Origin: a bacterium
GTDB lineage: Bacteria > Bacteroidota > Ignavibacteria > Kapaibacteriales > UBA7675
Length of the DNA: 64,000 nt
Direction of reading: 5' to 3'
NCBI GenBank assembly: GCA_030430495.1
Contig: JAUIKM010000009.1
Span: forward strand, 6,250-70,249
In this document: piece after piece, positions 14,656-41,329 of the stretch
How positions within the stretch are numbered: position 1 is the first letter of the stretch
How the letters are laid out: each line of letters begins with the position of its first letter
Translations under genes and position numbers: made by a program
Notes under the pieces: generated by a model
Database searches by the model: none
Told to the model about the DNA's origin: nothing
Seen by the model: the letters and a program-made list of their open reading frames with translations, nothing else

Positions 14656-17600
14656 TACTGGTTTGCGCCGCCGGATGCCGCGTCCGCCCCGCCTTCCGGC
14701 AGACTGTCGCTCACCGGAAAACCGGCCTTGCGTTTAAGGTCCATGATCTGGAACTCAATTTGCGGAATCAGGGCGTTGAGGTACTGATGCCCGGAGTTGC
14801 GATAGGATTCGATCACCTTCTCGGCTTCCGCGATTGCCTCGCTGTACTTGCCTTCCGACTCGTATTTCTCGATGCGGAGTTGATCGATAATCCCTTGCAG
14901 GCTGGGGTCGTCGCCGCGGCCGATTGATTCGCCGTATTGCTGCCAGTAATCCATTGCGGCGTCGTAGTTGCCGAGCATTGTGCTGGCGTCTGCGGCGATC
15001 TGAGCCGGATTATAGGAGTAGGTATAGCGCTCGCGCGTATTCCAGAGTTGGCGATTTTCGGGTTGCAGCAGAAAGTCGGACGATTCCAGCGCCATCTGCG
15101 CAAAGTGCTCGGCCTGGCGCTCCGCTCCGGCGCGGCTGTAGATTTCGGCTATCTGCATTTCCGTGGCAAAAGGCATCGGGAACATCTTGCTCGAAATGTA
15201 TTTGTCGAGCGTGTCCATGACGGCAGTCGCCTTTTCCTTGTTGCCCTGATTCAGCTGCCAGGTGGCGTAGTTCAGGTAGATATTGCGATAGCTGGGAACC
15301 GGGCGCCGGTTGGATTCGTCGTAGTAGACGTCCGGATTGTTCAGGTTGCGCAGTTTCCAGCCGTAGTGCTGCTGCTTGTGATAGTCGTTGCCCGGAATGA
15401 TGTTCAGCAGCGTCTGGTCCATGATGGCTTCGTTGCAGGCAAAAAAGCCGGACTGGTTGTTTTGTGAAACCGGACAGACGCGCAGACACATTCCCTCCAG
15501 GCGGAAGAAGTCTTCCAGCCCCGCATAGGCGTCGGGACCGACGGACATGGAGTAGTACACCGGACGCTCAAAACGCGTGGTTTTGAGGATGTCCGTCACC
15601 AGCTGGTCCTGCACGCGGATCACGTATTCCTGCGGCTCACTACCGCTGCCGTAGGGATCGCCGATGAGCTGCCAGCTCATTTTACCACTGTTGATAATGG
15701 CGGGATCGTCCGTGTACTGGCGCAGGATGTCGGGCGAAACGCTGACTTCCATCGTGCGCTCGCGGTCGATGTAATATGTCAATGCGACCGGCGAGTTTTC
15801 ATCGCGCGTCTGAATCGAAGCATCGCTGAACGAGAGCGGAATCTGCTCCGCGTTCCACGGTCGTTCGTTTTTCAGCTGATCGACGTACCAGAGGGTGTTG
15901 CCGAGGCTCAGGTTGACGATGCGCACGTCGCGACGCACGCCGGCGACGTCCTGCAGGTACCAGACCGGGAAGGTGTCGTTGTCGCCGTTGGTAAAGACAA
16001 TCGCATTTTCCTCGACGCTCTGCAGAATATTATAGGCGTAGTCGAATGGCAGGTAGTTGCCGCTGCGATCGTGAATCGCCCAACCCTGCCAGGCCATGTT
16101 GGCCGGTACCGCCACAAAGGACAGGATCAGAATGACGGCCACCAAAGGCGCGTAACCCGCCTCGCGCTGACGTCGCAATTGTTCGGCGATAAAATACACG
16201 CCGAGGCCTATCCACATGGCAAAGACCATAAATGAACCGGTGTAGAAATAGTCGCGCTCGCGCGGCTGCGGATTCTGTTGGTTCTGCTGCAGCGCAGCTA
16301 TTATTCCGGTCAGCAGGAAAAGCACAAAGTACGCGATTGCCATGCGCGGATCGCGGAATGCCTGAAAGAAGAGACCCAACAGTCCAAAGAGCAGCGGCAG
16401 CGCAAAGAAGCGCGCCGGAAAGTGCTCGGCGAAGGTGCCGACGCCGTAGAGCCAATAGTCTTCATCCGCCCCGATTTTGGTCCAGGGCGCGTCCTGAATG
16501 TCGCTCACCCGGCCGATAAAGTTCCAGGCGAAGTAACGCCCGTACATGTGGCTGGCCTGGTAGTCGATCAGGTAGTTGAATTCGCCGGCTGCGTTGACCT
16601 GGTTGAAGACAGGTACCGCCAGCACCACGCCGTCTTCGCGCTCAACGCGTTCGCGATCGGGCGGATACCATTCGCCGTAGGCGTTAAAATTGCGCTGAAT
16701 ATGCGGACGCGTGTCGTAGCGACGCGGCCACATAGGCGCATCGCCGTATTGTTCGCGGCCCAGGTAGGACACCAGGCTGCTGAGGTCGTTCGGGTTGTTT
16801 TCGTTCATCGGCGGGTGGGCGTTGGCGCGCAGCAGGATGTGCGTGTAGGTGCTGTAGCCCACAAAAATCAGCACAAAACAGGAGCCGACCACCACCAGGA
16901 GGTTGCGGTTGTTGCGCCAGGACCAGAAGATGAAAACCGCCGTGAAGAGCACCAGGAAACCGGCCACGATGCGGTCCAGTTTGCCGGCGTTGATTGTCCA
17001 GTTGCCGTCGATCATGGCCGGCAGCCACTTGACGATGCCGGGGTAGACCATGCCGAAAGCCGCCACCGCCGCGACGCCCATGACCAGGAAGGACAGCAGG
17101 CCCGGCTCGTTTTTGCGGAAGTATATAATGAGTGCAATCGGGAAGATCGTCAGAACCGCCAGCAGGTGAACGCCGATTGAAAGGCCGATCAGATACGCGA
17201 TCATCAGCAGGTAGCGCTCGTTGCCGGGATTGTCCGCCTCCTCATGCCATCGCATGATCAGCCAGACAATGATCGCCACAAAGAGCGTCGAGGCCGCATA
17301 GACCTCCGACTCCACCGCGTTAAACCAGAAAGTATCTGAAAAGATAAAAGCCGCCGCGCCGATAAAAGACGAGCCGTAGACCATCAGGCCCTCGCCGAAG
17401 TCCTTCGGTTTTTCGCCGCGGAAGTTGTTGATGACTATGACGGAGATCAAATAGAGAAGCAGGACACAAAATGCGCTGGAAAGCACGGAGACCAGGTTGA
17501 TGCGCCAGCCTTCATCGCCGAAGGGCAATAAAACGTGAAACACCTTGCCGACCATCAGAAACAGCGGCGCGCCCGGCGGGTGCGGCACCTGTTGCTGGAT

Positions 17601-17726
17601 GGCCGCGGCCGAAAATTCACCGCAGTCCCAGAACGGGACCGACGGCTGCACCGTGAGCATATAGGTGACGAGCGCCAGAGCAAATACCAGGATGCCAAAA
17701 GCGCGATGGAGAGTCTTTGTATCCAT
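14655..17726 (-). CDS. DUF2723 (TMEM260-type) GT-C fold membrane glycosyltransferase-like protein with a C-terminal TPR region. Paralog 1.
   Basis: From the internal ATG at 17726 the N-terminus is MDTKTLHRAFGILVFALALVTYMLTVQPSVPFWDCGEFSAAAIQQQVPHPPGAPLF, the DUF2723 signature. There are about 11 TM helices, then a large soluble region with TPR-like repeats. The track ORF extends 25 codons further upstream. Confidence 0.8.
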   Translation of the reverse strand: MDTKTLHRAFGILVFALALVTYMLTVQPSVPFWDCGEFSAAAIQQQVPHPPGAPLFLMVGKVFHVLLPFGDEGWRINLVSVLSSAFCVLLLYLISVIVINNFRGEKPKDFGEGLMVYGSSFIGAAAFIFSDTFWFNAVESEVYAASTLFVAIIVWLIMRWHEEADNPGNERYLLMIAYLIGLSIGVHLLAVLTIFPIALIIYFRKNEPGLLSFLVMGVAAVAAFGMVYPGIVKWLPAMIDGNWTINAGKLDRIVAGFLVLFTAVFIFWSWRNNRNLLVVVGSCFVLIFVGYSTYTHILLRANAHPPMNENNPNDLSSLVSYLGREQYGDAPMWPRRYDTRPHIQRNFNAYGEWYPPDRERVEREDGVVLAVPVFNQVNAAGEFNYLIDYQASHMYGRYFAWNFIGRVSDIQDAPWTKIGADEDYWLYGVGTFAEHFPARFFALPLLFGLLGLFFQAFRDPRMAIAYFVLFLLTGIIAALQQNQQNPQPRERDYFYTGSFMVFAMWIGLGVYFIAEQLRRQREAGYAPLVAVILILSFVAVPANMAWQGWAIHDRSGNYLPFDYAYNILQSVEENAIVFTNGDNDTFPVWYLQDVAGVRRDVRIVNLSLGNTLWYVDQLKNERPWNAEQIPLSFSDASIQTRDENSPVALTYYIDRERTMEVSVSPDILRQYTDDPAIINSGKMSWQLIGDPYGSGSEPQEYVIRVQDQLVTDILKTTRFERPVYYSMSVGPDAYAGLEDFFRLEGMCLRVCPVSQNNQSGFFACNEAIMDQTLLNIIPGNDYHKQQHYGWKLRNLNNPDVYYDESNRRPVPSYRNIYLNYATWQLNQGNKEKATAVMDTLDKYISSKMFPMPFATEMQIAEIYSRAGAERQAEHFAQMALESSDFLLQPENRQLWNTRERYTYSYNPAQIAADASTMLGNYDAAMDYWQQYGESIGRGDDPSLQGIIDQLRIEKYESEGKYSEAIAEAEKVIESYRNSGHQYLNALIPQIEFQIMDLKRKAGFPVSDSLPEGGADAASGGANQ

Positions 17727-17839
17727 ACGGTTGCCGATGTCCGATTGAAATTGTTGGCCGTCGGAGAAATGCGCTGCGCGCGTCCGGCCTGTGACACACA
17801 AATCCGTAATTTACCGCTTTGAGCGCAGACTGCAAGGTC

Positions 17840-22421: not shown

Positions 22422-25400
22422 TCAGGCGTCGGGAAGTGACAAACCAGCCGCCGAGTCTCCCGGCGCCCCGGCTTTGAACTGGAGCTGCCGCATATGCTGC
22501 TCCAACTGCGGAATAATGCCGTTCAGGTATGCCGAACCCGAAGCGCGGTACTCAGTGATAATCTTCTGAATTTCCGCGATGGCCGCTACCACATCGCCCT
22601 CCGCCGTGTGGCGCTCGATGCGCAGCTGATCGATGACCGCTCGCAGGCCGGGGTCGTCGGCCCGGCCGATTGAAGCGCCGTAATCGCGCCAGTACTGCAT
22701 CGCTTCGTCGTAGCGACCGAGTATGGTCACCGCCTCGGCGGCAATCTGCATCGGGTTGTACGAATACGTGTACAGTTCGCGCGTGCCCCACAGATCCCGG
22801 TTGTTTAACAGATGTTCCGAGGACTTCAGTGCCATCTCCGCGAATTCGCGCGCACGCTCCGTTGCTCCCGCGCGCAGGTACATGTCGGCTGTTTGCAGCT
22901 CGACGGCAAAAGGCATCGGGAACATCTCCGTAGAAATGTAGTCGTTCATTGTGTTGAGCACCTGCTGCGCCTTGTCGTTTTTGCCGCGAGCAATCAACCA
23001 GTTGGCGTAGTTCATGTAGATATTGCGATAGCTCGGAATCGGACGACGGTTGGACTCATCGTAGTAAACATCCGGGTTGTTTAAGTTGCGCAGCTTCCAG
23101 CCGGGATGCGGTTCGGTGAAGAACTCATCACCCTCAACGATATTCATGATTGTCCGGTCCATCATCTCTTCACTACAGGCGTACAGATCGCCGCGATTGT
23201 GCTGCGGTACCGGACAAACGCGCATAGCCATGCCCTCCATCCTGAAGTGATCCTGCAAACCTGCGTAGGCGTCTGGACCGACAGACAGGGAGAAGTACAC
23301 GGGCCGCTCAAATCGAATAACTTCGATTATTTCGCGGATCAACTGATCCTGAACACGGAACACGTACTCGCCTTCACCGTGATTAAACTCCTCACCCTCA
23401 AAGAGCCAGCTCATCTTCGGCGTCTGCAACAAGGCCGGGTCGTCCGTGTATTGCGCCATGATTTCGCGGCGCACCGGCACTTCAACCTGACGGGCCTTGT
23501 CGATGTAGTACGACAGCGCCTCGCGGGCGTTGGGATCGTCAACCTGGATTGACTCATCGCTGAAACGCAGTGGAATGGCCGCAGCGCCCCACGGTTCGCT
23601 GTTTTTCAGTTGATTGACGTACCAGGGGGTATTGCCGAGGCTCAGGTTAACAATGCGTACGTCGCGACGCACGCCGGCAACGTCCTGCATGTACCAGACC
23701 GGAAATGTGTCGTTGTCGCCGTTGGTAAACACAATCGCATTTTCGTCAACGCTCTGCAGGATATTGTAGGCGTAGTCAAAGGGCATGTAGTTGCCGCTGC
23801 GATCGTGCACTTTCCACCCCTGGATGGCCATGCTCGCCGGCGCGGCGACAAAACTCACCAGCAGGACGCAGGCCACAATCGGCAGGGCCATGCGTTTATT
23901 GATGCTGCGTGCGCGTTCCGCCAGATAATAAACGCCGATTCCGATCCACATGGCAAAGATCATGAATGAACCGGTGTAAAAGTAATCGCGCTCGCGCGGC
24001 TGCGGATTCTGTTGGTTCTGCTGCAAGGCAACGATTATCCCCGCCAGAATAAACAGAATGAAAAATGACGCGGCGGCTTTTGGATCGCGCCGTGCATGAT
24101 AAAACAAACCGAGCAGGCCCAACAGAAAAGGCAAAGCAAAAAAGTTAATCGGAAAATAGTCCGCGAACAGTCCGACGCGATAATTCCAATAGTCCACATC
24201 TGCGCCCGGATGCACCCAGGGAGAATCCTGTATGTCGCCGACGCGCCCGATAAAATTCCAGGCAAAATAGCGCCAGTACATGTGGTCGGCCTGGTAGCTG
24301 AGCAGGTAGTTCAACTCCGCCCGGGTATTGATGTCGCTGTTCTCGTAGTCGACCACGCTCAACGCCATACCGTCGCGACGAACAACGCGTTTGCGCGCCG
24401 GCGGCTGCCATTCGCCATAGGCGTCAAAGTTGCGCTGAATCTGCTTGCGCGTATCGTGGCGACGCGGCCAGAAAGGAGCCTGGGGATATTGTTCGCGCCC
24501 CAGATAGTCCGCCAGGCCGCTGAGGTCGCCGGGATTGTTTTCATTCATCGGCGGATTGGCATTTGCGCGCAGCAGAATGTGACCGTACGTGCTGTAGCCG
24601 AGAACCGTCAGAATAAAACAGGCGCTGACGAGCGTCAACAGCCCCGACCGGCGACGGTATGCCCAGATAAACAGCACCAACGCAGCGCTTAATATTGAAT
24701 ATGCCAGGAGCCGCAACAGGGAGCTGTCCACCGCCATCCACTCGTTCGCTTCCGTCTTGAACGGCGCGTGACCGTCCATCATGCCCGGCAGCCACTTGAC
24801 CATACCGGGATAAATCACAAAAAAGACGGCTACAGCTATTGCGCCCATTGTGATAAATGTTAACGGTTTGAATTCGTACTTGCGGAAGTACACGATCATC
24901 GCAATCGGAAATATCGTCAGCAGAGCCAACAGGTGAACGCCGATCGACAATCCAAGCAGATAGGCAATGAGGAGCAAATAGCGCTCGTGCCCCGCCTCGT
25001 CGGCAGCTTGATGCCAGCGTAAAATCAGCCAGACAGTCAGCGCGACGAACAAAGTCGAAGCGGCATAAACCTCCGATTCCACTGCGTTGAACCAAAAAGT
25101 ATCGCTGAATGTCAACGAACATGCGCCGACAAACCCCGCGCCGTACACCGAGAGCGCCTCCGTGAATTCGCGCGGCCGGCCGCCGCGGAAATTGTCAATC
25201 ACCAGGACAATTATCAGGTACAACAGCAGCGCTATCACCGCACTTGCACAGACGGAAACGAGATTAACACGCCAGGCCGACTCGCCGAAGGGGATCAGCA
25301 AATCAAATGTTTTACCGACCATCAGAAAAAGCGGCGCGCCCGGCGGATGCGGCACCTGCTGCTGTACGGCCGCCGCGGTAAATTCCCCGCAATCCCAGAA

Positions 25401-25493
25401 CGGAACAGTATCCTGTACCGTCAGCAGGTAGGTGCAGAACGCCAGGATAAAGGTCAGAAATGCAAAAGATCGATGCAGTAATTTTACGTTCAT
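22422..25493 (-). CDS. DUF2723 (TMEM260-type) GT-C membrane glycosyltransferase-like protein with a C-terminal TPR region. Paralog 2.
   Basis: N-terminus MNVKLLHRSFAFLTFILAFCTYLLTVQDTVPFWDCGEFTAAAVQQQVPHPPGAPLF. Collinear with the 14655..17726 paralog along the whole length, with the same TM block and the same soluble repeats. Confidence 0.8.
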   Translation of the reverse strand: MNVKLLHRSFAFLTFILAFCTYLLTVQDTVPFWDCGEFTAAAVQQQVPHPPGAPLFLMVGKTFDLLIPFGESAWRVNLVSVCASAVIALLLYLIIVLVIDNFRGGRPREFTEALSVYGAGFVGACSLTFSDTFWFNAVESEVYAASTLFVALTVWLILRWHQAADEAGHERYLLLIAYLLGLSIGVHLLALLTIFPIAMIVYFRKYEFKPLTFITMGAIAVAVFFVIYPGMVKWLPGMMDGHAPFKTEANEWMAVDSSLLRLLAYSILSAALVLFIWAYRRRSGLLTLVSACFILTVLGYSTYGHILLRANANPPMNENNPGDLSGLADYLGREQYPQAPFWPRRHDTRKQIQRNFDAYGEWQPPARKRVVRRDGMALSVVDYENSDINTRAELNYLLSYQADHMYWRYFAWNFIGRVGDIQDSPWVHPGADVDYWNYRVGLFADYFPINFFALPFLLGLLGLFYHARRDPKAAASFFILFILAGIIVALQQNQQNPQPRERDYFYTGSFMIFAMWIGIGVYYLAERARSINKRMALPIVACVLLVSFVAAPASMAIQGWKVHDRSGNYMPFDYAYNILQSVDENAIVFTNGDNDTFPVWYMQDVAGVRRDVRIVNLSLGNTPWYVNQLKNSEPWGAAAIPLRFSDESIQVDDPNAREALSYYIDKARQVEVPVRREIMAQYTDDPALLQTPKMSWLFEGEEFNHGEGEYVFRVQDQLIREIIEVIRFERPVYFSLSVGPDAYAGLQDHFRMEGMAMRVCPVPQHNRGDLYACSEEMMDRTIMNIVEGDEFFTEPHPGWKLRNLNNPDVYYDESNRRPIPSYRNIYMNYANWLIARGKNDKAQQVLNTMNDYISTEMFPMPFAVELQTADMYLRAGATERAREFAEMALKSSEHLLNNRDLWGTRELYTYSYNPMQIAAEAVTILGRYDEAMQYWRDYGASIGRADDPGLRAVIDQLRIERHTAEGDVVAAIAEIQKIITEYRASGSAYLNGIIPQLEQHMRQLQFKAGAPGDSAAGLSLPDA

Positions 25494-30638: not shown

Positions 30639-33134
30639 TTAAAGTGCGCGGTCCAGGAATTTAACAAACGCGGCTTCGTCCGTTGTGTAGGCGGACTTGG
30701 ATATCAACTGCTCCTGCGGTGTTAAAATCACGTAGAGCGGCAGGCTGATGTCGCCGTAGCGTTCCTCCTGCATCTTCTTGTACCGGTTGCTGTCATCCGA
30801 GCGCAGATCCGTATACAGTTGCACCACAACCATCTGTTCCAGACGGGTTTTAACACTCTCCTTCGGGAACATGGTCTTTTCCATCAGGCGGCAGTTTGTA
30901 CAGGTTTTGCCGGTAAAATCCACAAAGAGCGGTTTACCCGTTTTCTGCGATTCGGCCAGCGCCGCTTCGTAGTCCAGGAATATCTGCTCGCCTGCGTGTT
31001 TTTGCTTGAGCCTTTCCAGGAAATCACTACTGTTTTCCCCGGCTGCGGCTTCGCCGGCGCCTGGCTGTGCGAGGTCTGAATTTGTCGAGCTGTTTTCAGT
31101 CGTGACCGAGTTTCCGCCTTCCTCAAAATTGTGGAAGTAGATTTTGTCGTCCGGCGGCAGGAACGAGTCGATCATGCCGAGGTTTTTGCCCATCAATCCC
31201 GTAAACAGGAAAAAGGTGATGCTGGCAAAAAAGAGCGCAAACATCGCGCGCGTAGCGCCGACGCTGTCAACCGGACTGTCGTGCGAAAACCGGAAAATAC
31301 CCAGGATGTAAATCACGATGAAAATCGCGCAGCCGATCCACGTCGCAAGAAACAGATCGCGCGATAAAATTTGCCAGTTCCACACCAGGTCGGCATTGGA
31401 TATGAACTTCACCGCCGCCGCAATCTCGATGAATCCCATCACCACTTTGATGTTGTTCATCCAGCCGCCGGCGCGCGGCAGCTTCTGCATCATAGCCGGA
31501 AACAACGCCAGCAAAAAGAATGGCAATGCAAAAACCGTCGCGAATGCCGTCATCCCCAGAACCGGCCGCAGCAGCTCCGTTTCAGCGCCGCCGGTAGAAA
31601 TGAAAGCGGTCCCCACAAAGGGCACCGTACAGGTAAACGAGGTCAGCGAAAAGGTCAAAGCCATCAACAGAATGCCCGTGAAACCCTTGCCGTCGCCGCT
31701 GGCCGTATTCAGTTTGTTAAGTATCGCCGCCGGTATCTGAATCTCAAATGCGCCGAAGAGATTAAACGCAAAAATGATAAAGACCGAGGCAATCGCGATG
31801 TTCACCCAGGGATTCGTCGAGAAGTCGCGAACGCCCGTCGCGCCGAACAACAGCGTCAAAAGGACGCCCAGCACAACAAAGGTCAGGATAATGCCGAAGG
31901 AATAGACCAGGCTGTCGATCACGCCGCGGCCCGGATTTTTCTCGGAGCGTTTGGTGAAAAACGACACGGTGATCGGAATCATCGGGAACACACAGGGCGT
32001 CAGCAGAGCGCCGGCGCCGGCGACCATCGCCAGGATGAGGTACATCCACGTCGTCGCCTTGATCGTGGCCGTGATGTACATTTTGTGCTGCGTCGGCGGC
32101 AGACAGGCGCCTTCCTTGCAGATCTGATAGTCGATCGAAATGCTGAAGGGCTCCTGTGAATTGTCCTGCTCCAGCTTGACATTGTCCGGCACGTACACCG
32201 GAATCCGGAAGGTCGCTTCTTTTTTGTGTTTGCCGACGTCCATCATCTGGGCTTCGTCGTATTCCACCGTCGGCTGCGACTCCGTCACGTCTCCCATGCG
32301 AATTTTATCGCCGCCCTCCACCTCGAAGGTCGTGGCCTGGGGACCGAGTCCGTATTCGTCAACCGTTGCATTGATGCTGTAGGCATGCCAGCCGTCGGCA
32401 ATTTTCATGGTGACGTCGAGGTACACCGTATCGCCGACGACAATCGCCAGGTTCGTCGTGTCGGCAATCGAGATGTCGACCAGTTTGTCGTAGCTCGCAT
32501 TCGACAGATCGTCGCCGGACGATGCACCGTCCGACTCCATCGACTCGGAGTAATCTTCGCCTTCGTCGGAACTTTCGTCATCACTTGCGGCATCATCCGC
32601 GGCGCTGTCGGTCGTGGATGTGGCCGCACCGCTCACTTTGACCGTCAGCGGCAGTTCTTTCATGTCCGGCGGCAGACAGCGCGTCGGATCGCAGGACTGG
32701 AAGTACACCCTTACTTTGCCGGTGTAATCACCGGGCGCCATTCCGGCCGCCGCTTTGACGTTGACCGTAAAGTTGGCGCTGTGCTCGTGGTATTCAATAT
32801 CAAAATCAAAACCCTTGTCGAATTTCGACTTGGGTTTGGGCTCTTTTACGCCGGCCAGGCTGATGCCGTCGGCAAAACCGTCCAGCTCGACCTCGGTGGC
32901 CGTCGGTCCGATGCCGTATTCATCGCTTTTGGGGTTGACGCCGTAGATGTACCAGGTCTCGTCGATCGTGGCTTTCAGACCTACCGCCGCTTGTGAACCG
33001 GCTTCAACGCTGATGCTGTTGCCGCCGAGCGACCACTGCACCTTGGCGCCGTCTTCGCTGAAAAGCGTACTGTAGCCGACCGCCGCAAGCAGAAGAACGG
33101 TCGCCGTAATCAGGAATTTATCGGCTCTTGTCAT
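30639..33134 (-). CDS. dsbD: Thiol:disulfide interchange protein DsbD-family, with a duplicated nDsbD-like periplasmic domain.
   Basis: TM core with CVFPMIPI (CxxP variant). C-terminal thioredoxin-like domain [10 protein letters not shown] (CxxC). There are two N-terminal domains, each ending in a Cys pair before LPP: CDPTRCLPP and CKEGACLPP. They are separated by a D/S/E-rich acidic linker. Confidence 0.8.
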
Positions 33135-33320: not shown

Positions 33321-35255
33321 GTGGCGCCTATGAGCGACGCATCCGCACCGGGCCGCGCATCGAAGGACGACAACAAACTCGACGGCAAATTGCTGAAACG
33401 ACTGGTCGTCTTTTTGAAGCCCTATAAACGCCTGGTTATCCTGGCAATTGTCTTTAACATTCTGGCCGCAGGCCTTGGGCCCTTCCGCGCAGTCCTCGTG
33501 AACTACGCCGTGGACGACGCCATCAAGATTACGGCGGTCGATGATGACAGCCCCACAGACGCCGGCGCATCGCTCACCCCCGGCGCAACGACTGAACCTC
33601 AGACTCCCGCCCTCTCTCCCGCTGACAAACAAAAGAATGCCCAAAACGATCCGCAAACACGCTACGATCTGCTGCAATTTTACTGCCTCAGCATTTTTGG
33701 ACTGCTGGTGCTGCAGGGCCTGCTGCAGTATTTCCTGACGCTCCTGATGAACTGGATCGGCCAGAATACGATCAACGATGTGCGGACGACGCTTTTTGAC
33801 ATCGTACAGCGATTGTCGCTGCGTTTCTACGACACAAATCCGATCGGGCGGCTGATTACGCGGGTTACCAGCGATGTGGAGGTGTTGCAAACGATGTACA
33901 CCGACAGCCTGGTGATGATCATTTCGAACGTCTTCCAGCTGGTGTTTATCGTCGCGGCCATGTTCATCGTCTCGTGGCAACTCGCCTTTGCCACGCTGGC
34001 CATCGTGCCGCTGCTGCTGATCGCCACGTCGATTTTCCGCCGCCACGTGCGCGAGGCCTTCCGCAGTATTCGCGGCCTCGTCTCGCGCATGAACGCCTTC
34101 CTGAATGAGTACATCACGGGCATTTCCGTGGTGCAGCTCTTTTCCCAGGAACGCAAACAGGCCGCCAAGTTCGACAAGATCAACAAGGAACACACCGACG
34201 AGCAGATCCGCACCGTCACCTACTACGCGCTCTTTTTTCCGGTTGTGGACTTCCTGACTTCGATGTCGACCGCCATAACGGTTGGTTTCGGCGGCTGGGC
34301 CATCACGGGCGGCAGCGTGGAACTGGGCGATCTGATCGCATTTATCCTGCTCTTTGAGCTCTTTTTCCGTCCCCTGCGCGAACTGTCGGACAAATACAAC
34401 GCACTGCAAAACGCCATGGCTTCGTCGGAGCGCATTTTTGAGCTGCTCGACGAAGACTCATTTATCTCCGACTCACCGCAGGCGCAGGATATGCCAAGGT
34501 TGGCGCGCGCCGTGGAATTCAACAAGGTCGGCTTTGCCTACGACGGCGTCAACTTTGTGCTCGACGATATTTCCTTTACCGTCAACAAAGGTGAGACGAT
34601 TGCAATTGTCGGCGCCACGGGCGCGGGCAAGAGTTCCATCATCAACCTGCTGACGCGATTTTACGAGTTCCAGCGCGGCAGTATCCGCGTCGACGGCGTC
34701 GACATCCGCGACCTGCGCCAGAATTCCCTGCGCAGTCACATCGCAATTGTGCTGCAGGATGTCTTCATGTTTTCGCGCAGCGTGCTCGACAACATCACAC
34801 TCGGCGACGAAAACATTACGCGCGAGGATGCCGTCGCGGCCGCCAAAGCCGTCGGTGCGCACGACTTCATCGAACGGCTGCCGCAGGGCTACGACACGCA
34901 GGTCCGCGAACGCGGATCCACGCTCTCCGTCGGTCAAAGGCAACTCTTGTCCTTTTGTCGCGCACTCGCCGCGGACCCGGACATTCTCATTCTGGACGAA
35001 GCGACGTCCAGCGTCGACACGGCAACGGAACAGATTATCGAGGCGGCCATTTCGCGTCTGCTGGCGGGCCGCACCTCAATTGTTATTGCACACCGCCTTT
35101 CCACCGTCCGCCGCGCGGACCGGATCATTGTTATGCACCGCGGCAAGATGTACGAGCAGGGCAGCCACGAGGAATTGATCGCGGCCGACGGCCTGTACGC
35201 CAAGCTGTACAAATTGCAGTACAAGGAACAGCTCACCACTCCGCTCGACTCCTGA
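33321..35255 (+). CDS. ABC exporter, fused permease-ATPase (MsbA/lipid-export-like).
   Basis: Six-TM domain followed by an NBD: Walker A GATGAGKSS, signature LSVGQRQLLSFCRAL, Walker B ILILDEATSSVD. The antisense ORF 33198..34409 is spurious. Confidence 0.85.
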   Translation: MAPMSDASAPGRASKDDNKLDGKLLKRLVVFLKPYKRLVILAIVFNILAAGLGPFRAVLVNYAVDDAIKITAVDDDSPTDAGASLTPGATTEPQTPALSPADKQKNAQNDPQTRYDLLQFYCLSIFGLLVLQGLLQYFLTLLMNWIGQNTINDVRTTLFDIVQRLSLRFYDTNPIGRLITRVTSDVEVLQTMYTDSLVMIISNVFQLVFIVAAMFIVSWQLAFATLAIVPLLLIATSIFRRHVREAFRSIRGLVSRMNAFLNEYITGISVVQLFSQERKQAAKFDKINKEHTDEQIRTVTYYALFFPVVDFLTSMSTAITVGFGGWAITGGSVELGDLIAFILLFELFFRPLRELSDKYNALQNAMASSERIFELLDEDSFISDSPQAQDMPRLARAVEFNKVGFAYDGVNFVLDDISFTVNKGETIAIVGATGAGKSSIINLLTRFYEFQRGSIRVDGVDIRDLRQNSLRSHIAIVLQDVFMFSRSVLDNITLGDENITREDAVAAAKAVGAHDFIERLPQGYDTQVRERGSTLSVGQRQLLSFCRALAADPDILILDEATSSVDTATEQIIEAAISRLLAGRTSIVIAHRLSTVRRADRIIVMHRGKMYEQGSHEELIAADGLYAKLYKLQYKEQLTTPLDS

Positions 35256-35460: not shown

Positions 35461-35816
35461 GAGCGATGGACATTAGATCTGGCGGCAAAAAACAATTCAG
35501 ATGTAGTCTTGAACAAAGACCTTGTACAGTATCACAACCAGGCGTTCAGCGATAGCCAAAAGTCGCCGAACTTCAAGTCCAAAGTCCGTTTCAATCACAT
35601 CAGTGCAACATCACCTGAAATCCCGGCGGTTCGCAGCGGGCCTGAAACAGGCTGGTCCAAAGTATCAGTGCGGTCGGGAGGACAAAAGCAGTTAAACCGT
35701 GGTGTCGGGAAAACGTCGTAACTGTGTCGGAAGGCGTTGATCTCTCGTGCGCCGTACATGCATGGGTGGGTTTAAAAGCAGACGGGCCGCTTGCGCGGCC
35801 CGTCCTGTTAACAGTC

Positions 35817-37577
35817 TTATGCTTCCATCTCTTCTTCGACATCTTCTTCCATGTCGTCGATATCGTCAACGTCGTCAACGTCGTCCATCTCGTCGTCCAT
35901 GTCGTCCATATCCTCATCGTGCTCTTCGGAATCTTCGTCCGCGTCGCTGTTGGTCGGACGCTGATAGAAGTAGGATGACTCCGTCGTGTCGTGACCGAGC
36001 AGTTCGGCCAGTTCGATTTCGTTCATCTGTTTCCACGAACCTTCCTTGATCGTATCGGTCGTGAGTGTGCCGATGCGGAAGCGGTGCATGGAAAGCACTT
36101 CCAGGTCGTTGTTTTTGAGCACTTTGTTGATATCGGTCACGCCGCCGCGTTTAACAATGATCGACAGCCAGCAGGAGCGTTTGTTCTTCTGCAGGACCGC
36201 AGCTTTGGTCTCTTTGCCGTTGTCGTCATGCAGCGCGCGCAGGGCCTTGTTCAAGGCCGTGATTTCCGTGCGCTTGGGAACGCGGTTAACCTTGACGTGG
36301 TATTCTTTTTCCAGCGTGTTAAACTCCGACGCGTCGGAATTGCGATGCGCTTCGTCATTGGTCGTAATCACCAGACCGCTCATCGCTTTGGACAGGCGTC
36401 CGGCCGGGAAGTACCAGTGTTCGGAGTTCGGCACCAGCGAGTGCACCGAGCGCACGTTCGGCTCTTTGGACGGCACGAGGCCGGCCGGTTTGTGCAGCAC
36501 CACGAAGTTGCCGCTGCGATTTGCTTTCAGCGGCATGTAGTCGACGGCAACGCGGTCCTTAAACAGGATGACGCGTTTGTTCGGATCGGAAACGATAGCA
36601 TTGTTAACCGACACGCGCGAGTTGCGGATAAAGTCGATCGTAATGTTGCGCGATCCGAACTGCAGTTTGGCCATGGCGCGCGGCAGCGAGACAATCTGCA
36701 GATTGCGCCGCTTTTTGGTAAAGTTTTTCTGGGCTTCCTTGCGCGTAATCTGCGGTTTGCGCGGCTTCTGGAATCGCTGATTCTGGTGGCGCGCCTGCTG
36801 GCCGCCGCCCGGATGACGTCCCTGTTGTCCGCCGCCGGGGTGATCGCCGCCGCCGCGGCGATCCTGCTGCCGATCCTGCTGATAACCGCCTTCGCGGCGC
36901 TGATACTGGCGACTTTCGCCCTGATAGCCACCACCGCCGCCGCCGCCTCGATGTGAGGGTTGCGCCGGCGCCGGTCCCGGCGGACGGCGTTTGATCATGC
37001 GGCGCGGCCGCGGTTCCGGCGCGCGATTGTCGTACTGCTGATAACTGTCGCGATCGCGGTCGCGGTCGCGGTCCCGACTGCCGCCGCCGCCGTAATCGCC
37101 GCCGCGCGAACGGTAGTTGTCGCGCGGTTGCCGATTTTCATAGTTGTGCGAGTCGCGGTAGTTGTCGCGCGGCGGGCGGTTGTCGTACTGCTGCTGACGC
37201 GGCTGATAAGACGAACGACGCTGGTAGGACTGGTTGCCGCCGCCACCGCCGCCGTACCCGCCGGATTTCTGGCGGTTGTAGTTGCCGCCGTACGAGGGGT
37301 TCTGGTCGCTGTAAATTTTCGGGTTGCCGACGTTGGCGCCTTCGCGATTCCAGCGGTGCTCATCGGGTTCTTCGTAGTCGTAATCGTAGTCGTAATCGCG
37401 CTTGGGCACGCGGCCGGCCGCATCCTGCGGATTCGGCGCCTGATCGTAGGGCGGCTGTTGCTCCGGTTGGCGCGGCGCGTCCTGATCCTTGGCATCATCC
37501 TGTTGCCATTGCTGATTCTTCCAGACTCTGCCGGAGCGCGAATTGTCGCGCCGCGGTATTCTGTTTTTCCCATTCAT
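35817..37577 (-). CDS. RluB/RsuA-family pseudouridine synthase, with a roughly 300-aa RGG/YGG-rich N-terminal disordered region and a poly-acidic C-terminal tail.
   Basis: S4 domain (SRVSVNNAIVSDPNKRVILFKDRVAVD). Catalytic region with VVLHKPAGLVPS and ITTNDEAH. The N-terminal segment is low-complexity: GGYGGGGGGNQSYQRR, RDRDRDRDSYQQY, GGGGGGYQGESRQYQRREGGYQQDRQQDRRGGGDHPGGGQQGRHPGGGQQ. The C-terminus reads DEDSEEHDEDMDDMDDEMDDVDDVDDIDDMEEDVEEEMEA. GGAGAT RBS before the ATG at 37577. Confidence 0.75.
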   Translation of the reverse strand: MNGKNRIPRRDNSRSGRVWKNQQWQQDDAKDQDAPRQPEQQPPYDQAPNPQDAAGRVPKRDYDYDYDYEEPDEHRWNREGANVGNPKIYSDQNPSYGGNYNRQKSGGYGGGGGGNQSYQRRSSYQPRQQQYDNRPPRDNYRDSHNYENRQPRDNYRSRGGDYGGGGSRDRDRDRDRDSYQQYDNRAPEPRPRRMIKRRPPGPAPAQPSHRGGGGGGGYQGESRQYQRREGGYQQDRQQDRRGGGDHPGGGQQGRHPGGGQQARHQNQRFQKPRKPQITRKEAQKNFTKKRRNLQIVSLPRAMAKLQFGSRNITIDFIRNSRVSVNNAIVSDPNKRVILFKDRVAVDYMPLKANRSGNFVVLHKPAGLVPSKEPNVRSVHSLVPNSEHWYFPAGRLSKAMSGLVITTNDEAHRNSDASEFNTLEKEYHVKVNRVPKRTEITALNKALRALHDDNGKETKAAVLQKNKRSCWLSIIVKRGGVTDINKVLKNNDLEVLSMHRFRIGTLTTDTIKEGSWKQMNEIELAELLGHDTTESSYFYQRPTNSDADEDSEEHDEDMDDMDDEMDDVDDVDDIDDMEEDVEEEMEA

Positions 37578-37697
37578 GAGGGTATCTCCCTTCAAACTAT
37601 TACACAAGTATTAATATCATATTCTTCAATTGCACGGTCACATCACCAATGTGTGTGTTGACTGTGGGTGTGACGGACCGGTTGGGCTGAGGCGACT

Positions 37698-38300
37698 TCA
37701 GAGTAGTACTTTAACGACGTAAAATCCAAGCACCAGAAGTACGATGAACACGATAGAGAGAATATCGAAATATTTATCGATAAATACCTTGATCTGTGCT
37801 CCGAAGATTCGAATCAAGCCCCCAACGAGGAAAAATCTCCCCGCACGACCGATCGTAGAAATCAGAATAAACGGCAAAATCGGCATCTCGAAGGCGCCTG
37901 AGGCGATTGTAGCCACTTTGTACGGTATGGGCGTAAACGCCGCTCCGAGAAGCAGAAGGTTACCGTACTCGTCGTACATCGCCTGGAATTCCTCCCACTT
38001 GGATTCCAGGCCGTACATCGCGATAACAGGATTTCCTACGACATCCATCAGTCCGAATCCAATGAGATAACCGATTACCCCGCCAACCAGAGACCCCAAG
38101 GTGCACCACAACGCCGCCTGTAACGCCTTGTCAGGCCTTGAGACAGCGATGGCGATAAGCAGTACGTCCGGTGGAATCGGAAATACAGAAGATTCGGCCA
38201 ATGCCAAAAAGAACAAAGCATACATTGCGGACGGTTTTTCCGCAAAACTTTCCATCCAGGCTTTCAGACTTCGCATCCAGCGAAAAAACGCTTTCACCAC
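37698..38300 (-). CDS. DedA/YqaA-family (VTT domain) membrane protein.
   Basis: 200 aa with about 5 TM helices. It has the ESSVFPIPPDVLLIA motif characteristic of the DedA/SNARE-associated family. Confidence 0.75.
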   Translation of the reverse strand: MVKAFFRWMRSLKAWMESFAEKPSAMYALFFLALAESSVFPIPPDVLLIAIAVSRPDKALQAALWCTLGSLVGGVIGYLIGFGLMDVVGNPVIAMYGLESKWEEFQAMYDEYGNLLLLGAAFTPIPYKVATIASGAFEMPILPFILISTIGRAGRFFLVGGLIRIFGAQIKVFIDKYFDILSIVFIVLLVLGFYVVKVLL

Positions 38301-38376: not shown

Positions 38377-39363
38377 TCAGACAGGATCCGCACTTACTTC
38401 CGTCCAGATACCCATTGCGCTGAACTTGTTCAATCGTTGTTCCAACAAGTCAGTGGTGTCGAACTTAAGCAGGCCGCGAAGTTCATCAGTCAAAATACGC
38501 TGCATCGTTGCAAACATTGCGCCGTGGTCGGCATGAGCTCCGCCAATAGGTTCGGGAACGATGCGATCTATTATTCCGAACTTTTGCAGATCCGGCGCCG
38601 TCAGTTTAAGTGCTTCAGCCGCCTGCTCTTTGTATTCCCAGCTGCGCCACAAAATGCTGGAGCAGGACTCGGGCGCAATCACCGAATACCAGGCGTTTTC
38701 CAACATCAGAACCCTGTCCCCGATTCCAATGCCCAGCGCGCCGCCGGAGGCGCCCTCGCCGATAATTGTTATGATAATCGGCACGCTCAACCGCGCCATT
38801 AAACGCAAATTGCGGGCGATTGCCTCTGCCTGTCCGCGTTCCTCGGCTTCCATGCCCGGATACGCGCCCGGAGTGTCAATCAGGCAAACAACAGGTTTGT
38901 TGAATTTTTGCGCCAACTCAAACAGTCGGTGCGCCTTGCGGTATCCCTCGGGATTCGGCATGCCGAAATTGCGCATCAGGTTCGATTTGGTATCGCGCCC
39001 CTTTTGATGCCCCACCACTACGACGCCGCGGCCGTCCAGCCGGGCCAGACCGCCCACAATCGCAGGATCGTCACGGAACGAGCGGTCGCCGTGCAACTCA
39101 ACAAAATCGGTAAAAATGTTTTCGATGTAATCAAGCGTCTGCGGACGCTGCGGGTGGCGCGCTATCTGGACGCGCTGCCAACGGGTAAGTTTGGAATACA
39201 CTTCCTCACGCAGGCGCCTGACTTTGCTTTCGAGTTTGTCTATCTCGAGATTGATCTCCATGGAATCGGCCATCGCCCGCATCTCGTCGACCTTGGCTTC
39301 CAGGTCGATGATCGGTTTTTCAAATTCGAGAATGGGGCTGATATTTTTTTTACCCGACGCCAC
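38377..39363 (-). CDS. accA: Acetyl-CoA carboxylase carboxyltransferase alpha subunit.
   Basis: [41 protein letters not shown]. Full-length AccA. Confidence 0.9.
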
Positions 39364-41329
39364 TGTTTCTACGGAAAAAATATTTTACAAAAATTTCAAA
39401 ATCCAGCGCCAGTGAGTAATGGCGCAAATAATAGTCATTTAAACTGCGTAAAGCCTGGATGGATATCTTTTCGGCTTTGTTGATGTGAGCCAGGCCCGTT
39501 AATCCGATTTTGCCGATTTTTGACTCTGAATCGCCTTCCAGGGGATAAATGCCGAATAGGCTGTAGTCACCTTTGAGGACCAGTACCAGCTTGTGCCTCG
39601 CGACCTTTGGATCAGCAGACGCCAAATATACGATAGGCAACCCAATTGTCAAAAGAAAAAGCGAGCCGCAAATGTCGATCAAACGCTTGGCCAGACGATT
39701 ACCCGGACGCGTAATTTTATACTGCGCCGCCGCCGGCGCCACGCCGGTCAGACTCTCGATTATTCGCGAGGTTATAACTTCGTCGTAACTGTGCGCAAAA
39801 CGCCAGTGGCGCGCATGCCCCGCCAGCTCCGTCATGTTCCGCAGCATCTCCGTGCGCGAAAGCTCGCCGTCCGTCACGATCAACTCGTCGATTCCGTGGT
39901 CGCGCACGATTTTGTTCAGGTAGCTGATGTTCCCGAGCACCGGGTCCGCCCAGGACGGCAGCGCTGCGCCCGGCTGTGTGTTGACGAAACCCACCAGGTC
40001 CGTGTTGCGCGCCTCGGCCGTCTGCAGGTCCGTCATCAACTGGCGCGAGACGTCGTTCACGCCCACAATCGCGATGCGCTTGTCCGCGTCGCGCCCCAGC
40101 AATTTCTCAAAAACGGAAATCGCCAGGCGCAGCGCGCCAAGACCAACAAAACTCAGCCCCAGGAACATCAGGAGCACGCCGCGGGAAATGGCGTAGTCTT
40201 CCACGAAGTACGGCACCGTCGAGAGCAGGAAAAACGAAATCATCAGCGCCGTCACCAGATTCCGGATCGACGAGCGTTGGTATATCGAGTACTCGCCCGC
40301 ATACAACAGCGAGACAAGCAAAAAACCGGCCGGAATCAACGGAATCTCCGGGTAGGCATAGGCCGGAAAACCCAGGAACGAACCAGTGCGAATCTTGATC
40401 CCCATCATCAGCGCCGCATTCGCCAGCGCAAAGTCCGCCAGCGCCAGACCCCACTGCGCCCGGTACTGCCAGATGTAGGCGATAAATGAACGCACCGTGA
40501 TGCCCAGTCGCAAAAACAACAGGAAAAGTTTGCTCGCCCCGAAGTGTTTGTTAACAAACACCTCCATCGCCCGGTAAAATTCGCGTACCTCGTTCAGCGA
40601 GGAACGCCGCGTGCTCTCGCCCTTGAAGTGAATGACGGAGGTCGAATGCACGTAGACAATCTGCCAGCCGGCGCGCCCCACGCGATAACACAGGTCCAGA
40701 TCCTCGCCGTACATGTAGTAGTCCGGGTCGAATCCGCCCGTCTGCTCCAGCGCCTCGCGCCGCATAAACATGAATGCTCCCGCCACCGCATCCACCGGAT
40801 AGGTCTCGTTCACATCGCGAAAAGTCTGGTTGTACTGTCCAAAAAGCCTGGAGTTGGGAAAGAGTGATTGCAGGCCGAAAATTTTGGTGAATGACACCCA
40901 GGGCGTCGGAAAGCCGCGGCGGCAGGGCAGCTGGAAACTGCCGTCGTGGTTGAGCAGCTTGCAGCCGCTCAGGCCCACCTGCGGATGGCGGCGCATGTAG
41001 TCCACCATGTGGTCCATCGTGTCTTCGCTCACCAGCGTGTCGGGATTCAGACACAACACAAACGCGCCGCGGCAGCGCTCAAAACCAATATTGTTGGCCT
41101 TGCCGAACCCCAGGTTCTCCGTCTGCCGGATGAACTCCACCTCCGGAAAGAGCGGCGCAAGGTAATCCACGGAGCCGTCCTGAGAGTTGTTGTCCACGAC
41201 GATGACCTGTCCTTCCAACGTGGCAAATGCATCGCGCAGCGACTGCAGGCAGTTGTACAGGAAGTCCTTGACGTTGTAGTTGACAATTACAACGCTGACG
41301 TCGGGCTGTTTGGCTTCACGTGAAATCAA
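39350..41329 (-). CDS. Fusion protein: N-terminal GT2 glycosyltransferase plus a WbaP-like multi-TM/Rossmann linker region and a C-terminal sugar-transferase-like domain.
   Basis: N-terminus [14 protein letters not shown]...[10 protein letters not shown]...[11 protein letters not shown] (GT2 DxD and QxxRW-type region). The middle has 4-5 TM helices and [15 protein letters not shown]...ELIVTDG (WbaP-like). The C-terminal approximately 120 aa is divergent and has no clean PGITG motif. The 3' end overlaps accA by 14 nt. Confidence 0.6.

Follow-up and report, generated by a model that had tools for sequence, protein, structure and literature searches.

A pseudouridine synthase-like protein of Bacteroidota, probably without catalytic activity and with a long disordered N-terminal region

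The window analysed here, a 64-kb stretch of bacterial DNA, carries on its minus strand the gene of a pseudouridine-synthase-like protein, flanked by putative signals of translation initiation and of termination. A protein of identical sequence (P0269) is present in NCBI on a 153-kb contig. Scanning the window against Rfam at gathering thresholds returned no structured RNA, and no second RsuA-type synthase was found in it.

35817..37577, minus strand: whole coding sequence of the query protein, ATG start, 586 aa plus stop
37585..37592, minus strand: Shine-Dalgarno-like AAGGGAGA, 7 nt 5' of the ATG
35771..35804, minus strand: terminator-like hairpin (10-bp GC stem, GCAA loop, then UGCUUUUAAA), beginning 13 nt past the stop codon
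36708..37577, minus strand: N-terminal low-complexity region, aa 1-290, rich in R/G/Q/P/D/Y/N, net charge +21, pLDDT 32-46, dN/dS 0.055
37356..37397, minus strand: acidic-aromatic block DYDYDYDYEEPDEH, aa 61-74, local net charge -7, a 6/12-nt tandem repeat
37305..37352, minus strand: conserved short linear motif WNREGANVGNPKIYSD, aa 76-91, of a recurring NRE(G/Q) type
37236..37254, minus strand: (GCC)6 tract coding the Gly run of GGYGGGGGG, with one codon fewer in L006 and P0121
37047..37077, minus strand: hexanucleotide repeat coding RDRDRDRD, its copy number varying among three close alleles

The N-terminal part of the gene invites the suspicion of a mis-called upstream sequence, or of a decaying pseudogene with neutrally expanding repeats: its DNA is full of repeats and reaches 70% GC, spurious ORFs occur in other frames, and the sequence of the extension is poorly conserved in distant relatives. 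Against a mis-call, the Shine-Dalgarno-like AAGGGAGA lies within TTTGAAGGGAGAT, which is kept in the relative L006 and also in L007, despite the diverged upstream region of the latter. L007, with 63% identity in the core, also shares the N-terminus itself (MNGK.K.PRRD.SRSG.VW.NQ). The original prediction expected that a mis-called tail would betray itself by a start and ribosome-binding site immediately before the S4 domain; neither was found there. No in-frame ATG, GTG or TTG was found between Met194 and Met302, and Met302 is already inside the domain.

Compared with a 97%-identical relative, residues 1-290 have a dN/dS of 0.055 (43 synonymous and 10 non-synonymous changes) and the core one of 0.068, and indels are exclusively in frame. 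On these grounds, together with the conserved start, we reject a mis-called N-terminus; purifying selection and intact syntenic orthologues likewise lead us to reject a pseudogene, the composition and linear motifs of the extension being kept across about 40 diverged members. Either reading is thus very improbable. Judged from the sequences, the gene encodes a real, conserved protein under strong purifying selection.

The region was described beforehand as one of extreme low complexity, and both its residue counts (R 45, G 42, Q 38, P 27, D 27, Y 21 and N 20 in aa 1-290) and the entropy of the ORF, the lowest among ORFs of the window, bear this out. Over the approximately 290 N-terminal residues, R accounts for 16%, G for 14%, Q for 13% and Y for 7%. 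The runs singled out in that description, GGYGGGGGGNQSY, RDRDRDRD and GGQQGRHPGGGQQ, are all present, next to three RGG, three YGG and six Gly runs of at least three residues. Within the window, low complexity stands out only in this ORF and in one acidic insert of a DsbD homologue; we therefore reject it as a genome-wide habit.

AlphaFold2, run with a 33-sequence alignment, places residues 1-280 and 538-586 at pLDDT 32-46 without secondary structure. The N-terminal region is thus predicted to be disordered, as anticipated, and a folded domain hidden in it is rejected, neither the model nor Pfam giving any sign of one. Some elements recur all the same: the block DYDYDYDYEEPDEH is conserved in P0001 and L007, and about 14 of 38 family members have an NRE(G/Q)-type motif in their N-terminal extension. 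Ahead of the S4 domain, basic residues cluster in aa 261-300 (net charge +12). The protein shares the Arg/Gly/aromatic-rich composition and predicted disorder of RGG/GAR-type condensate-forming regions, and a role as chaperone, in condensates or in autoinhibition fits these two properties.

Slippage in the repetitive DNA was also foreseen correctly. The gene contains (GCC)6, (GTCGCG)4.5 and (TCGTAA)4.5 tandem repeats, as well as 9-, 12- and 21-mers in the part coding the tail. Slippage-type indels, all in frame and located exactly in the repeat tracts, distinguish three nearly identical alleles (586, 582 and 580 aa). Since every repeat unit has a length divisible by three and no observed indel shifts the frame, only the length of the protein changes, and on/off phase variation by slippage is rejected.

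The folded part of the protein and its tail comprise the following features.

36543..36695, minus strand: S4 RNA-binding domain, approximately aa 295-345, after the basic cluster aa 261-300
35988..36515, minus strand: RsuA/RluB/RluF/RluE-type pseudouridine synthase fold, approximately aa 355-530, from sequence and structure matches
36390..36392, minus strand: codon TCC of Ser396, at the position of the GRLD catalytic Asp (RsuA Asp102) in a HMMER alignment
36126..36128, minus strand: codon of Asn484, aligned to the conserved motif III Arg/Lys (canonical QIRRM)
35820..35942, minus strand: acidic C-terminal tail, aa 546-586, 28 D/E in 41 residues, with a (M/V/I)-D-D period of three

The core is modelled with a pLDDT of 89 and a pTM of 0.83. 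Its best Foldseek matches are RluF (3dh3), RsuA (1ksk), RluB (4lgt) and RluE, with E-values of 1e-16 to 1e-9; structures of the RluA family match weakly (1e-5 to 1e-4). Sequence comparison agrees, phmmer aligning the protein with RsuA 1ksk at an E-value of 2.4e-10. Family models recognize it less readily: Pfam S4 alone is below threshold (E 0.074), PF00849 is barely passed (28.0 against a cut-off of 26.8), TIGR00093 of NCBIfam gives 68.6 bits against 109.3, and the RsuA, RluF and RluE equivalog models yield 23-53 bits against cut-offs of 275-318. The protein nevertheless has a pseudouridine synthase fold preceded by an S4 domain.

This core was taken to be ordinary at first, which does not hold. 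In the HMMER alignment AGRLSKAMSGL of the query stands opposite AGRLDIDTTGL of RsuA, so that Ser396 replaces the catalytic Asp, and no other acidic residue occurs in the loop GRLSKAMSG. Asn484, in the context VTDINKVLK, replaces the active-site Arg of motif III. The motif IIa Tyr (EKEY) and the Asp of TND are kept.

The query belongs to a family that forms about 50 clusters when grouped at 50% identity, found on contigs of Kapabacteria/Ignavibacteria-type Bacteroidota. A long N-terminal extension is no oddity of this one protein, as the original prediction had it, but characteristic of the family: nearly all full-length members carry one rich in R/G/N/Q/Y/D, and the core begins at residue 65-390 in 46 representatives retrieved at E <1e-30. 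Scored against TIGR00093, 33 family members all stay below the cut-off, with 2e-25 as the best E-value. Canonical matches all have VGRLD plus EG(K/R)NRQIRRM, and all are without the N-terminal extension. In a neighbour-joining tree without support values, the family is monophyletic with respect to canonical RluB-like enzymes.

The two catalytic residues tend to be kept or lost together. Among 66 aligned sequences, 25 have both the Asp and the motif III Arg/Lys and 34 have neither; six lack the Asp and keep the Arg/Lys, five of them with Glu instead, and a single one keeps the Asp without the Arg/Lys. On the same tree without support values, Asp/Arg were lost at least 4-5 separate times. Members with Asp plus Arg include P0127, P0128, P0137, P0142, P0143 and P0147-149, and because of them an ancestral, possibly still-shared role may include catalysis.

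Is the query, then, an active RluB/RsuA-type rRNA synthase that merely bears unusual disordered tails, as originally proposed? Its clear homology to RsuA, RluF and RluE and their common fold, the retained Tyr and TND Asp, the relatives with both residues and the JGI records, which label relatives 'pseudouridine synthase' (RluB or RsuA), speak for it. The substitutions Ser396 and Asn484 speak against it, and so does the position of the catalytic Asp, which is S or T in close orthologues and hypervariable beyond them (S, T, H, P, I, N, A, G; 11 different non-Asp residues family-wide); there is therefore no conserved alternative nucleophile. To our knowledge, all six families of pseudouridine synthases require this Asp. 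Since Asp and Arg are gone here and in most of the family, the protein is probably not a working pseudouridine synthase and the JGI label of an active one is probably wrong; we consider an active enzyme improbable. The family is apparently undescribed. Literature searches gave no description of a bacterial RsuA-family pseudoenzyme or of an RGG-bearing pseudouridine synthase.

The C-terminal tail was expected to be nearly uninterrupted in its acidic residues. It is strongly acidic, with a net charge of about -28 to -29, but M, V or I breaks the run at about every third position. Net charges of the corresponding tails are -26 in P0121, -16 in P0001, -11 in P0123, -8 to -9 in P0122, P0124 and P0125, and +1 in P0002. 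A strongly acidic tail is thus limited to the subclade of the query, where P0002 does without it; distant family members end in a W..LY.RWFKS motif instead. With a dN/dS of 0.55, a 3-codon indel relative to L006 and its absence from P0002, the tail appears poorly conserved.

The genomic position is conserved, always beside accA: the order GT2-AccA-(GT4/DedA)-PUS-like is found in all seven independent loci, across which AccA is 64-73% identical and the core of the query protein 26-63%. This GT2-accA linkage, invariant over deep divergence, would fit an RNA-binding pseudoenzyme outside ribosome biogenesis, which might, for example, control the neighbouring envelope, lipid or glycan genes (accA, GT2, DedA, ABC exporter) post-transcriptionally or serve as a general mRNA/sRNA chaperone. 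The immediate neighbourhood, where no ribosomal gene was found and LepA is 5 kb off, is consistent with it. However, the gene order may be merely historical, and a 120-bp AT-rich gap, together with the gene's own terminator, suggests possibly separate expression. Moreover, we know of no characterised S4 plus RsuA-family protein whose target is other than rRNA. We regard such a non-ribosomal role as a serious, if rather unlikely, alternative.

The loss of the catalytic residues, the disordered front end and the acidic tail together make an RNA-binding scaffold, rather than an enzyme, the most likely identity. We thus favour, with moderate confidence, a catalytically dead RsuA/RluB-type descendant selected as an RNA-binding chaperone or scaffold, probably for rRNA, with tails that would tune the binding. 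Its selected function would be to bind RNA instead of isomerizing uridine. Docking to structured RNA would fall to S4 and the inactive cleft, and the most plausible such RNA is a helix of rRNA within a ribosome assembly intermediate; it is solely ancestry that points to ribosome assembly. The Arg/Gly/Tyr-rich region may add multivalent contacts of low specificity to RNA, leading to chaperoning, annealing or condensate formation, while its conserved linear motifs WNREGAN and IKRRPP could recruit partners. In the subclade, the polyacidic tail may act as a competitor of RNA at basic surfaces, in cis or in trans, tuning affinity or solubility.

A bolder reading, which we hold only tentatively and think doubtful, is that, in one lineage of the Bacteroidota (Kapabacteria, Ignavibacteria and relatives), a pseudouridine synthase of rRNA was remodelled into a scaffold that resembles nucleolar proteins and whose condensate organizes ribosome assembly. 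The dead core would target nascent rRNA, and the RGG/Tyr-rich region, with the D/E tract of some members, would drive condensation. If so, bacteria would have in it a counterpart to the nucleolar proteins with GAR domains and acidic tracts, and the recurrent loss of catalytic residues would mark the non-catalytic role as primary.

It has long been asked whether the importance of rRNA pseudouridine synthases lies in the modification itself or in the enzyme being there while the ribosome assembles, and in this family nature seems to have put the question to the test. Orthologues at one conserved genomic position still have the synthase fold, an S4 domain and a long stretch of disorder, and dropped Asp and Arg together, several times; sister branches retaining both are built-in controls. 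The family also offers a bacterial example of an RGG/Tyr-rich region and a D/E tract on a predicted RNA-binding protein. This pairing is best known from nucleolar proteins, which makes the family a tractable model for charge-patterned autoregulation.

Among known systems, E. coli RsuA, RluB, RluF and RluE are the best sequence and structure matches, with a homologous S4 domain and catalytic fold. The motifs NKPxG, GRL, TND, EKxY and RxRIG of the RsuA family are retained in the query, and RluB is listed by Foldseek in PDB 9cl9, bound to pre-50S particles. Contrary to these enzymes, the query lacks the catalytic Asp and the motif III Arg, is just 18-25% identical to them, below NCBIfam cut-offs, and carries a 290-aa disordered N-terminal region and an acidic tail. 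No N-terminal extension occurs in the canonical enzymes recovered, some of which (P0111, P0178) have basic C-terminal tails. One precedent for a non-catalytic role of the fold comes from E. coli rRNA modification enzymes, which help 50S assembly independently of catalysis (PMC11194073).

For the disordered region, a parallel is Rho of Bacteroides thetaiotaomicron, where a biased disordered region drives condensation and modulates activity, and short autoinhibitory sequences control condensation (PMC10284900, PMC13269538). Both are proteins of Bacteroidota, RNA-binding in the case of Rho and putatively so here, with a compositionally biased disordered region; in Rho, however, it is an insertion in an unrelated folded domain, a helicase, and phase separation, shown for Rho, is hypothesized for the query. 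For the tail, disordered acidic sequences such as the Hfq CTD and D/E repeats, next to a basic RNA-binding surface, mimic nucleic acid and autoregulate binding (PMC5606850, PMC6561178, PMC10250230). The query may have a comparable arrangement; unlike that of Hfq, its tail is far longer and acid-denser (net -28), has a hydrophobic residue at every third position and is not conserved family-wide.

Two further precedents for non-catalytic roles of the fold are mitochondrial. Human RPUSD3, without the conserved catalytic Asp, belongs to a module controlling mitochondrial 16S rRNA and translation (PMC12710931). As proposed for the query, a dead synthase fold is retained there for RNA handling, but RPUSD3 is eukaryotic, organellar and of the RluA family. 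We know of no comparable RGG/Tyr-rich extension or acidic tail in it. The T. brucei pseudouridine synthase orthologue mt-LAF3 is a mitoribosome assembly factor and RNA-stabilizing scaffold whose catalytic Asp is dispensable (bioRxiv 10.1101/2023.02.23.529727). A chain of a T. brucei mitoribosome assembly intermediate (7aoi_XP) is among the weak Foldseek matches of the query. Nevertheless, mt-LAF3 is of the RluA family, still has its Asp, acts in a mitochondrial assembly complex and lacks the tail architecture of the query. As in these two proteins, fold and selection persist where the catalytic residue is missing or not needed; common descent with them is not indicated, the best matches of the query all belonging to the RsuA family. 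Altogether, the query protein is, as far as its sequence tells, an independent case, analogous to the pseudoenzymes of the RPUSD3 and mt-LAF3 type.

The open reading frame at window positions 35817-37577 encodes a real protein under selection, which keeps the S4 domain and the synthase fold, has lost both active-site-defining residues, and has tails predicted to be disordered. Read on the minus strand from an ATG at 37577 to a stop at 35817-35819, it gives a product of 586 aa, identical to NCBI protein P0269 from a 153-kb contig, and has the lowest sequence entropy among the ORFs of the window. A hairpin lies 3' of its stop (10-bp GC stem, GCAA loop, short U tract; dG -25 kcal/mol, z = -3.8). 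In minus-strand order, its surroundings are:

39350-41329, minus strand: GT2 fusion
38377-39363, minus strand: AccA
37698-38300, minus strand: DedA/VTT, directly upstream of the query gene
35817-37577, minus strand: query gene
33321-35255, plus strand: ABC exporter, convergent, past the query gene
30639-33134, minus strand: DsbD homolog, past the query gene
also past the query gene: LepA

The ABC exporter has 644 aa, against 594 aa at L007, a Ca. Kapaibacterium MAG locus; the tblastn match to L007 starts at residue 143, and the N-terminal part holds an additional Pro/Thr/Ala/Asp-rich segment at about aa 65-115. The DsbD homolog (831 aa; DsbD_N, DsbD_TM and thioredoxin-like) contains an acidic Ser/Asp/Ala-rich low-complexity stretch, the sole other strongly biased segment among real genes of the window. 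Two large paralogous ORFs of 1048 and 1023 aa (14655-17801 and 22422-25493, both minus strand) have a TMEM260-like protein O-mannosyltransferase domain at the N-terminus (E about 1e-60).

Residues 1-290 of the query are of extreme low complexity (R 45, G 42, Q 38, P 27, D 27, Y 21, N 20; net +21), and the runs quoted for the region in the original prediction are all found. Next to S4 lies a cluster of basic residues (aa 261-300, net +12). Compared with the 97%-identical relative at L006 (CAYULF010000011.1), there are 43 synonymous changes in aa 1-290 and 10 non-synonymous ones, a dN/dS of 0.055; the folded core gives 0.068. Three close alleles (586, 582 and 580 aa) owe their different lengths to indels that sit in the Gly run, the RD repeat and the acidic tail; each keeps the frame and lies within a short tandem repeat detected by TRF. 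The L007 ortholog, whose core is 63% identical, keeps the N-terminus MNGK.K.PRRD.SRSG.VW.NQ, together with TTTGAAGGGAGAT placed 6-7 nt 5' of the ATG, the remaining upstream sequence having diverged. There is no in-frame ATG, GTG or TTG between Met194 and Met302, and Met302 falls within the first S4 helix. Because of this dN/dS, the in-frame indels, the conserved start with its upstream element and the lack of a later start before S4, the region is true coding sequence rather than the mis-called upstream stretch that had been considered for it. The selection data rule out mis-annotation, and likewise a pseudogene. AlphaFold2, run with a 33-sequence family alignment, bears out the expected N-terminal disorder: pLDDT is 32-46, without secondary structure, for aa 1-280 and 538-586, and about 90 for the core.

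The folded core (aa 291-545) had been described as ordinary, which does not hold. HMMER against PDB sequences pairs AGRLSKAMSGL of the query with AGRLDIDTTGL of RsuA, placing Ser396 on the catalytic Asp; to our knowledge, this Asp is required in all pseudouridine synthase families. Motif III reads RGGVTDINKVL instead of the canonical EG(K/R)NRQIRRM, Asn484 replacing the conserved Arg, and the catalytic loop has no other acidic residue. The query scores 28.0 bits with Pfam PF00849, narrowly above the 26.8 cut-off, and 68.6 bits with TIGR00093, below its cut-off of 109.3; that NCBIfam cut-off was reached by none of the 33 family members tested. In the AlphaFold2 model (core pLDDT 89, pTM 0.83) the synthase fold is intact, the top Foldseek matches being RluF, RsuA, RluB and RluE.

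A word-indexed search returned only two close relatives, P0001 (63%) and P0002 (49%), followed by ordinary RluB-like proteins at no more than 33%. When 1.84 billion representatives were searched exhaustively with a profile, 46 proteins scored below E 1e-30; most have 400-670 aa, with a core that begins at residue 65-390. About 48 of the best 60 profile matches have in common an Asp position occupied by varying residues, a degenerate motif III, ....(D/E)I...LK..GLE.L, and family-specific W(Y/F)FP.G and GS.E motifs; nearly all full-length members among these 48 carry an R/G/N/Q/D/Y/S/P-rich N-terminal extension. The canonical matches all have VGRLD and QIRRM, and all are without extension. Across 66 aligned sequences, 25 have both Asp and the motif III Arg/Lys and 34 have neither; Arg/Lys occurs without Asp in six (five with Glu), and Asp without Arg/Lys in one. 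In a neighbour-joining tree, which carries no support values, the family forms one clade against canonical enzymes; Asp and Arg are kept by P0127 and P0128, which adjoin the query's subclade, and by the P0137/142/143/147-149 branch; elsewhere there were at least four or five losses. Since both residues are lost in the query and the Asp position is hypervariable among its relatives, the query is unlikely to be an active enzyme with odd tails. Precomputed Pfam annotation omits the synthase domain for several family members.

The query, P0001 and L007 share DY.YDYDY...WNREGANVGNPK(I/V)YSD, IKRRPP and RF.KPRKP within unalignable surroundings. An acidic-aromatic-(G)NRE(G/Q) motif occurs in about 14 of 38 extensions, distant ones included; as a sequence pattern, such recurrence is typical of partner-binding linear motifs. 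In one subclade (P0141, P0146, P0151, P0155, P0170), the acidic-aromatic DDD(D)SQ(I/L).(F/Y)FG lies within the N-terminal 10-40 residues; it differs from WNREGAN and has the look of a further docking-motif candidate. At the other end, aa 546-586 of the query contain 28 D/E out of 41 (net -28), with Met/Val/Ile at about every third position. This acidic tail is restricted to the query's subclade (net -29, -26, -16, -11, -8 to -9, but +1 in P0002) and evolves fast (dN/dS 0.55 and a 3-codon indel against L006). Its place is taken in distant members (P0131, P0133-P0135, P0138, P0139, P0147-P0149, P0154, P0162) by an aromatic/basic motif, W..LY.RWFKS(T), which may be an amphipathic helix or docking motif.

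The gene was examined at seven independent loci. In each, it is found a short way 3' of a GT2 fusion of about 670 aa and accA, sometimes with a GT4 or DedA gene in between; an ABC exporter or NUDIX gene comes after. Family members are orthologs sharing one genomic position. AccA identity across loci is 64-73%, that of the query-family core 26-63%: judged by sequence divergence, the protein evolves fast over long spans and is tightly constrained over short ones. The fusion, with its CoA_binding_3/Bac_transf-like C-terminus, is directly 5' of accA in the window (38377-41329, minus strand; 14-nt overlap) and at L001, L002 and L008-L012, a fatty-acid synthesis gene invariably paired with a glycan gene. 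A role linked to these envelope and lipid neighbours is possible given the invariant accA linkage, but an AT-rich gap precedes the query gene and a separate terminator follows it.

The window LepA is 100% identical to that of the NCBI 153-kb contig and 84% to that of the Kapaibacterium MAG contig; named matches at 72-78% come from Kapabacteria, Ignavibacteria, Chlorobiota and Bacteroidota. One distant locus has a T9SS sorting domain. The host is accordingly a Kapabacteria-like bacterium within Bacteroidota. The contig of L006, from a MAG titled 'uncultured Hyphomicrobiales bacterium', is 91-93% identical to the window in DNA. The LepA on the 158,906-bp contig of this MAG (98% to the window's) groups with Kapabacteria/Ignavibacteria/Chlorobiota and not Alphaproteobacteria, so a mistake in binning or taxonomy probably lies behind the label. 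P0165 (354 aa; L009 5323-6036, minus strand) probably has a truncated called N-terminus: a no-Pfam ORF (L009 6001-7065, plus strand) shares 36 nt (6001-6036) with the start called for P0165 and occupies the sequence just 5', where the extension is expected. Gene callers appear to mishandle the GC-rich repeat region of this family.

What is most informative is that Asp and Arg were lost as a pair, and repeatedly, inside a single syntenic ortholog group. We infer that the query protein binds RNA without modifying it. In FUS-type proteins, an Arg/Tyr sticker composition promotes multivalent contacts with RNA and condensation; the extension, whose 45 Arg and 21 Tyr give it this composition, could act likewise. 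The disordered region of Rho from B. thetaiotaomicron, also a Bacteroidota, phase separates (PMC10284900, PMC13269538). In view of the protein's ancestry, its likeliest target would be an rRNA helix within an assembly intermediate: PDB 9cl9 shows RluB bound on an intermediate-fraction particle obtained from 12 C cells, and other rRNA modification enzymes have assembly roles independent of catalysis (PMC11194073). Our literature searches turned up neither a bacterial RsuA-family pseudoenzyme nor a pseudouridine synthase bearing an RGG-type region; dead synthase folds are already known, and so, separately, are bacterial disordered regions that form condensates. RPUSD3 (PMC12710931) and mt-LAF3 (bioRxiv 10.1101/2023.02.23.529727) are dead or catalysis-dispensable synthase folds that scaffold mitochondrial RNA. 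Finally, the acidic tail could compete for basic surfaces against nucleic acid, as D/E repeats and the C-terminal domain of Hfq do (PMC5606850, PMC10250230).
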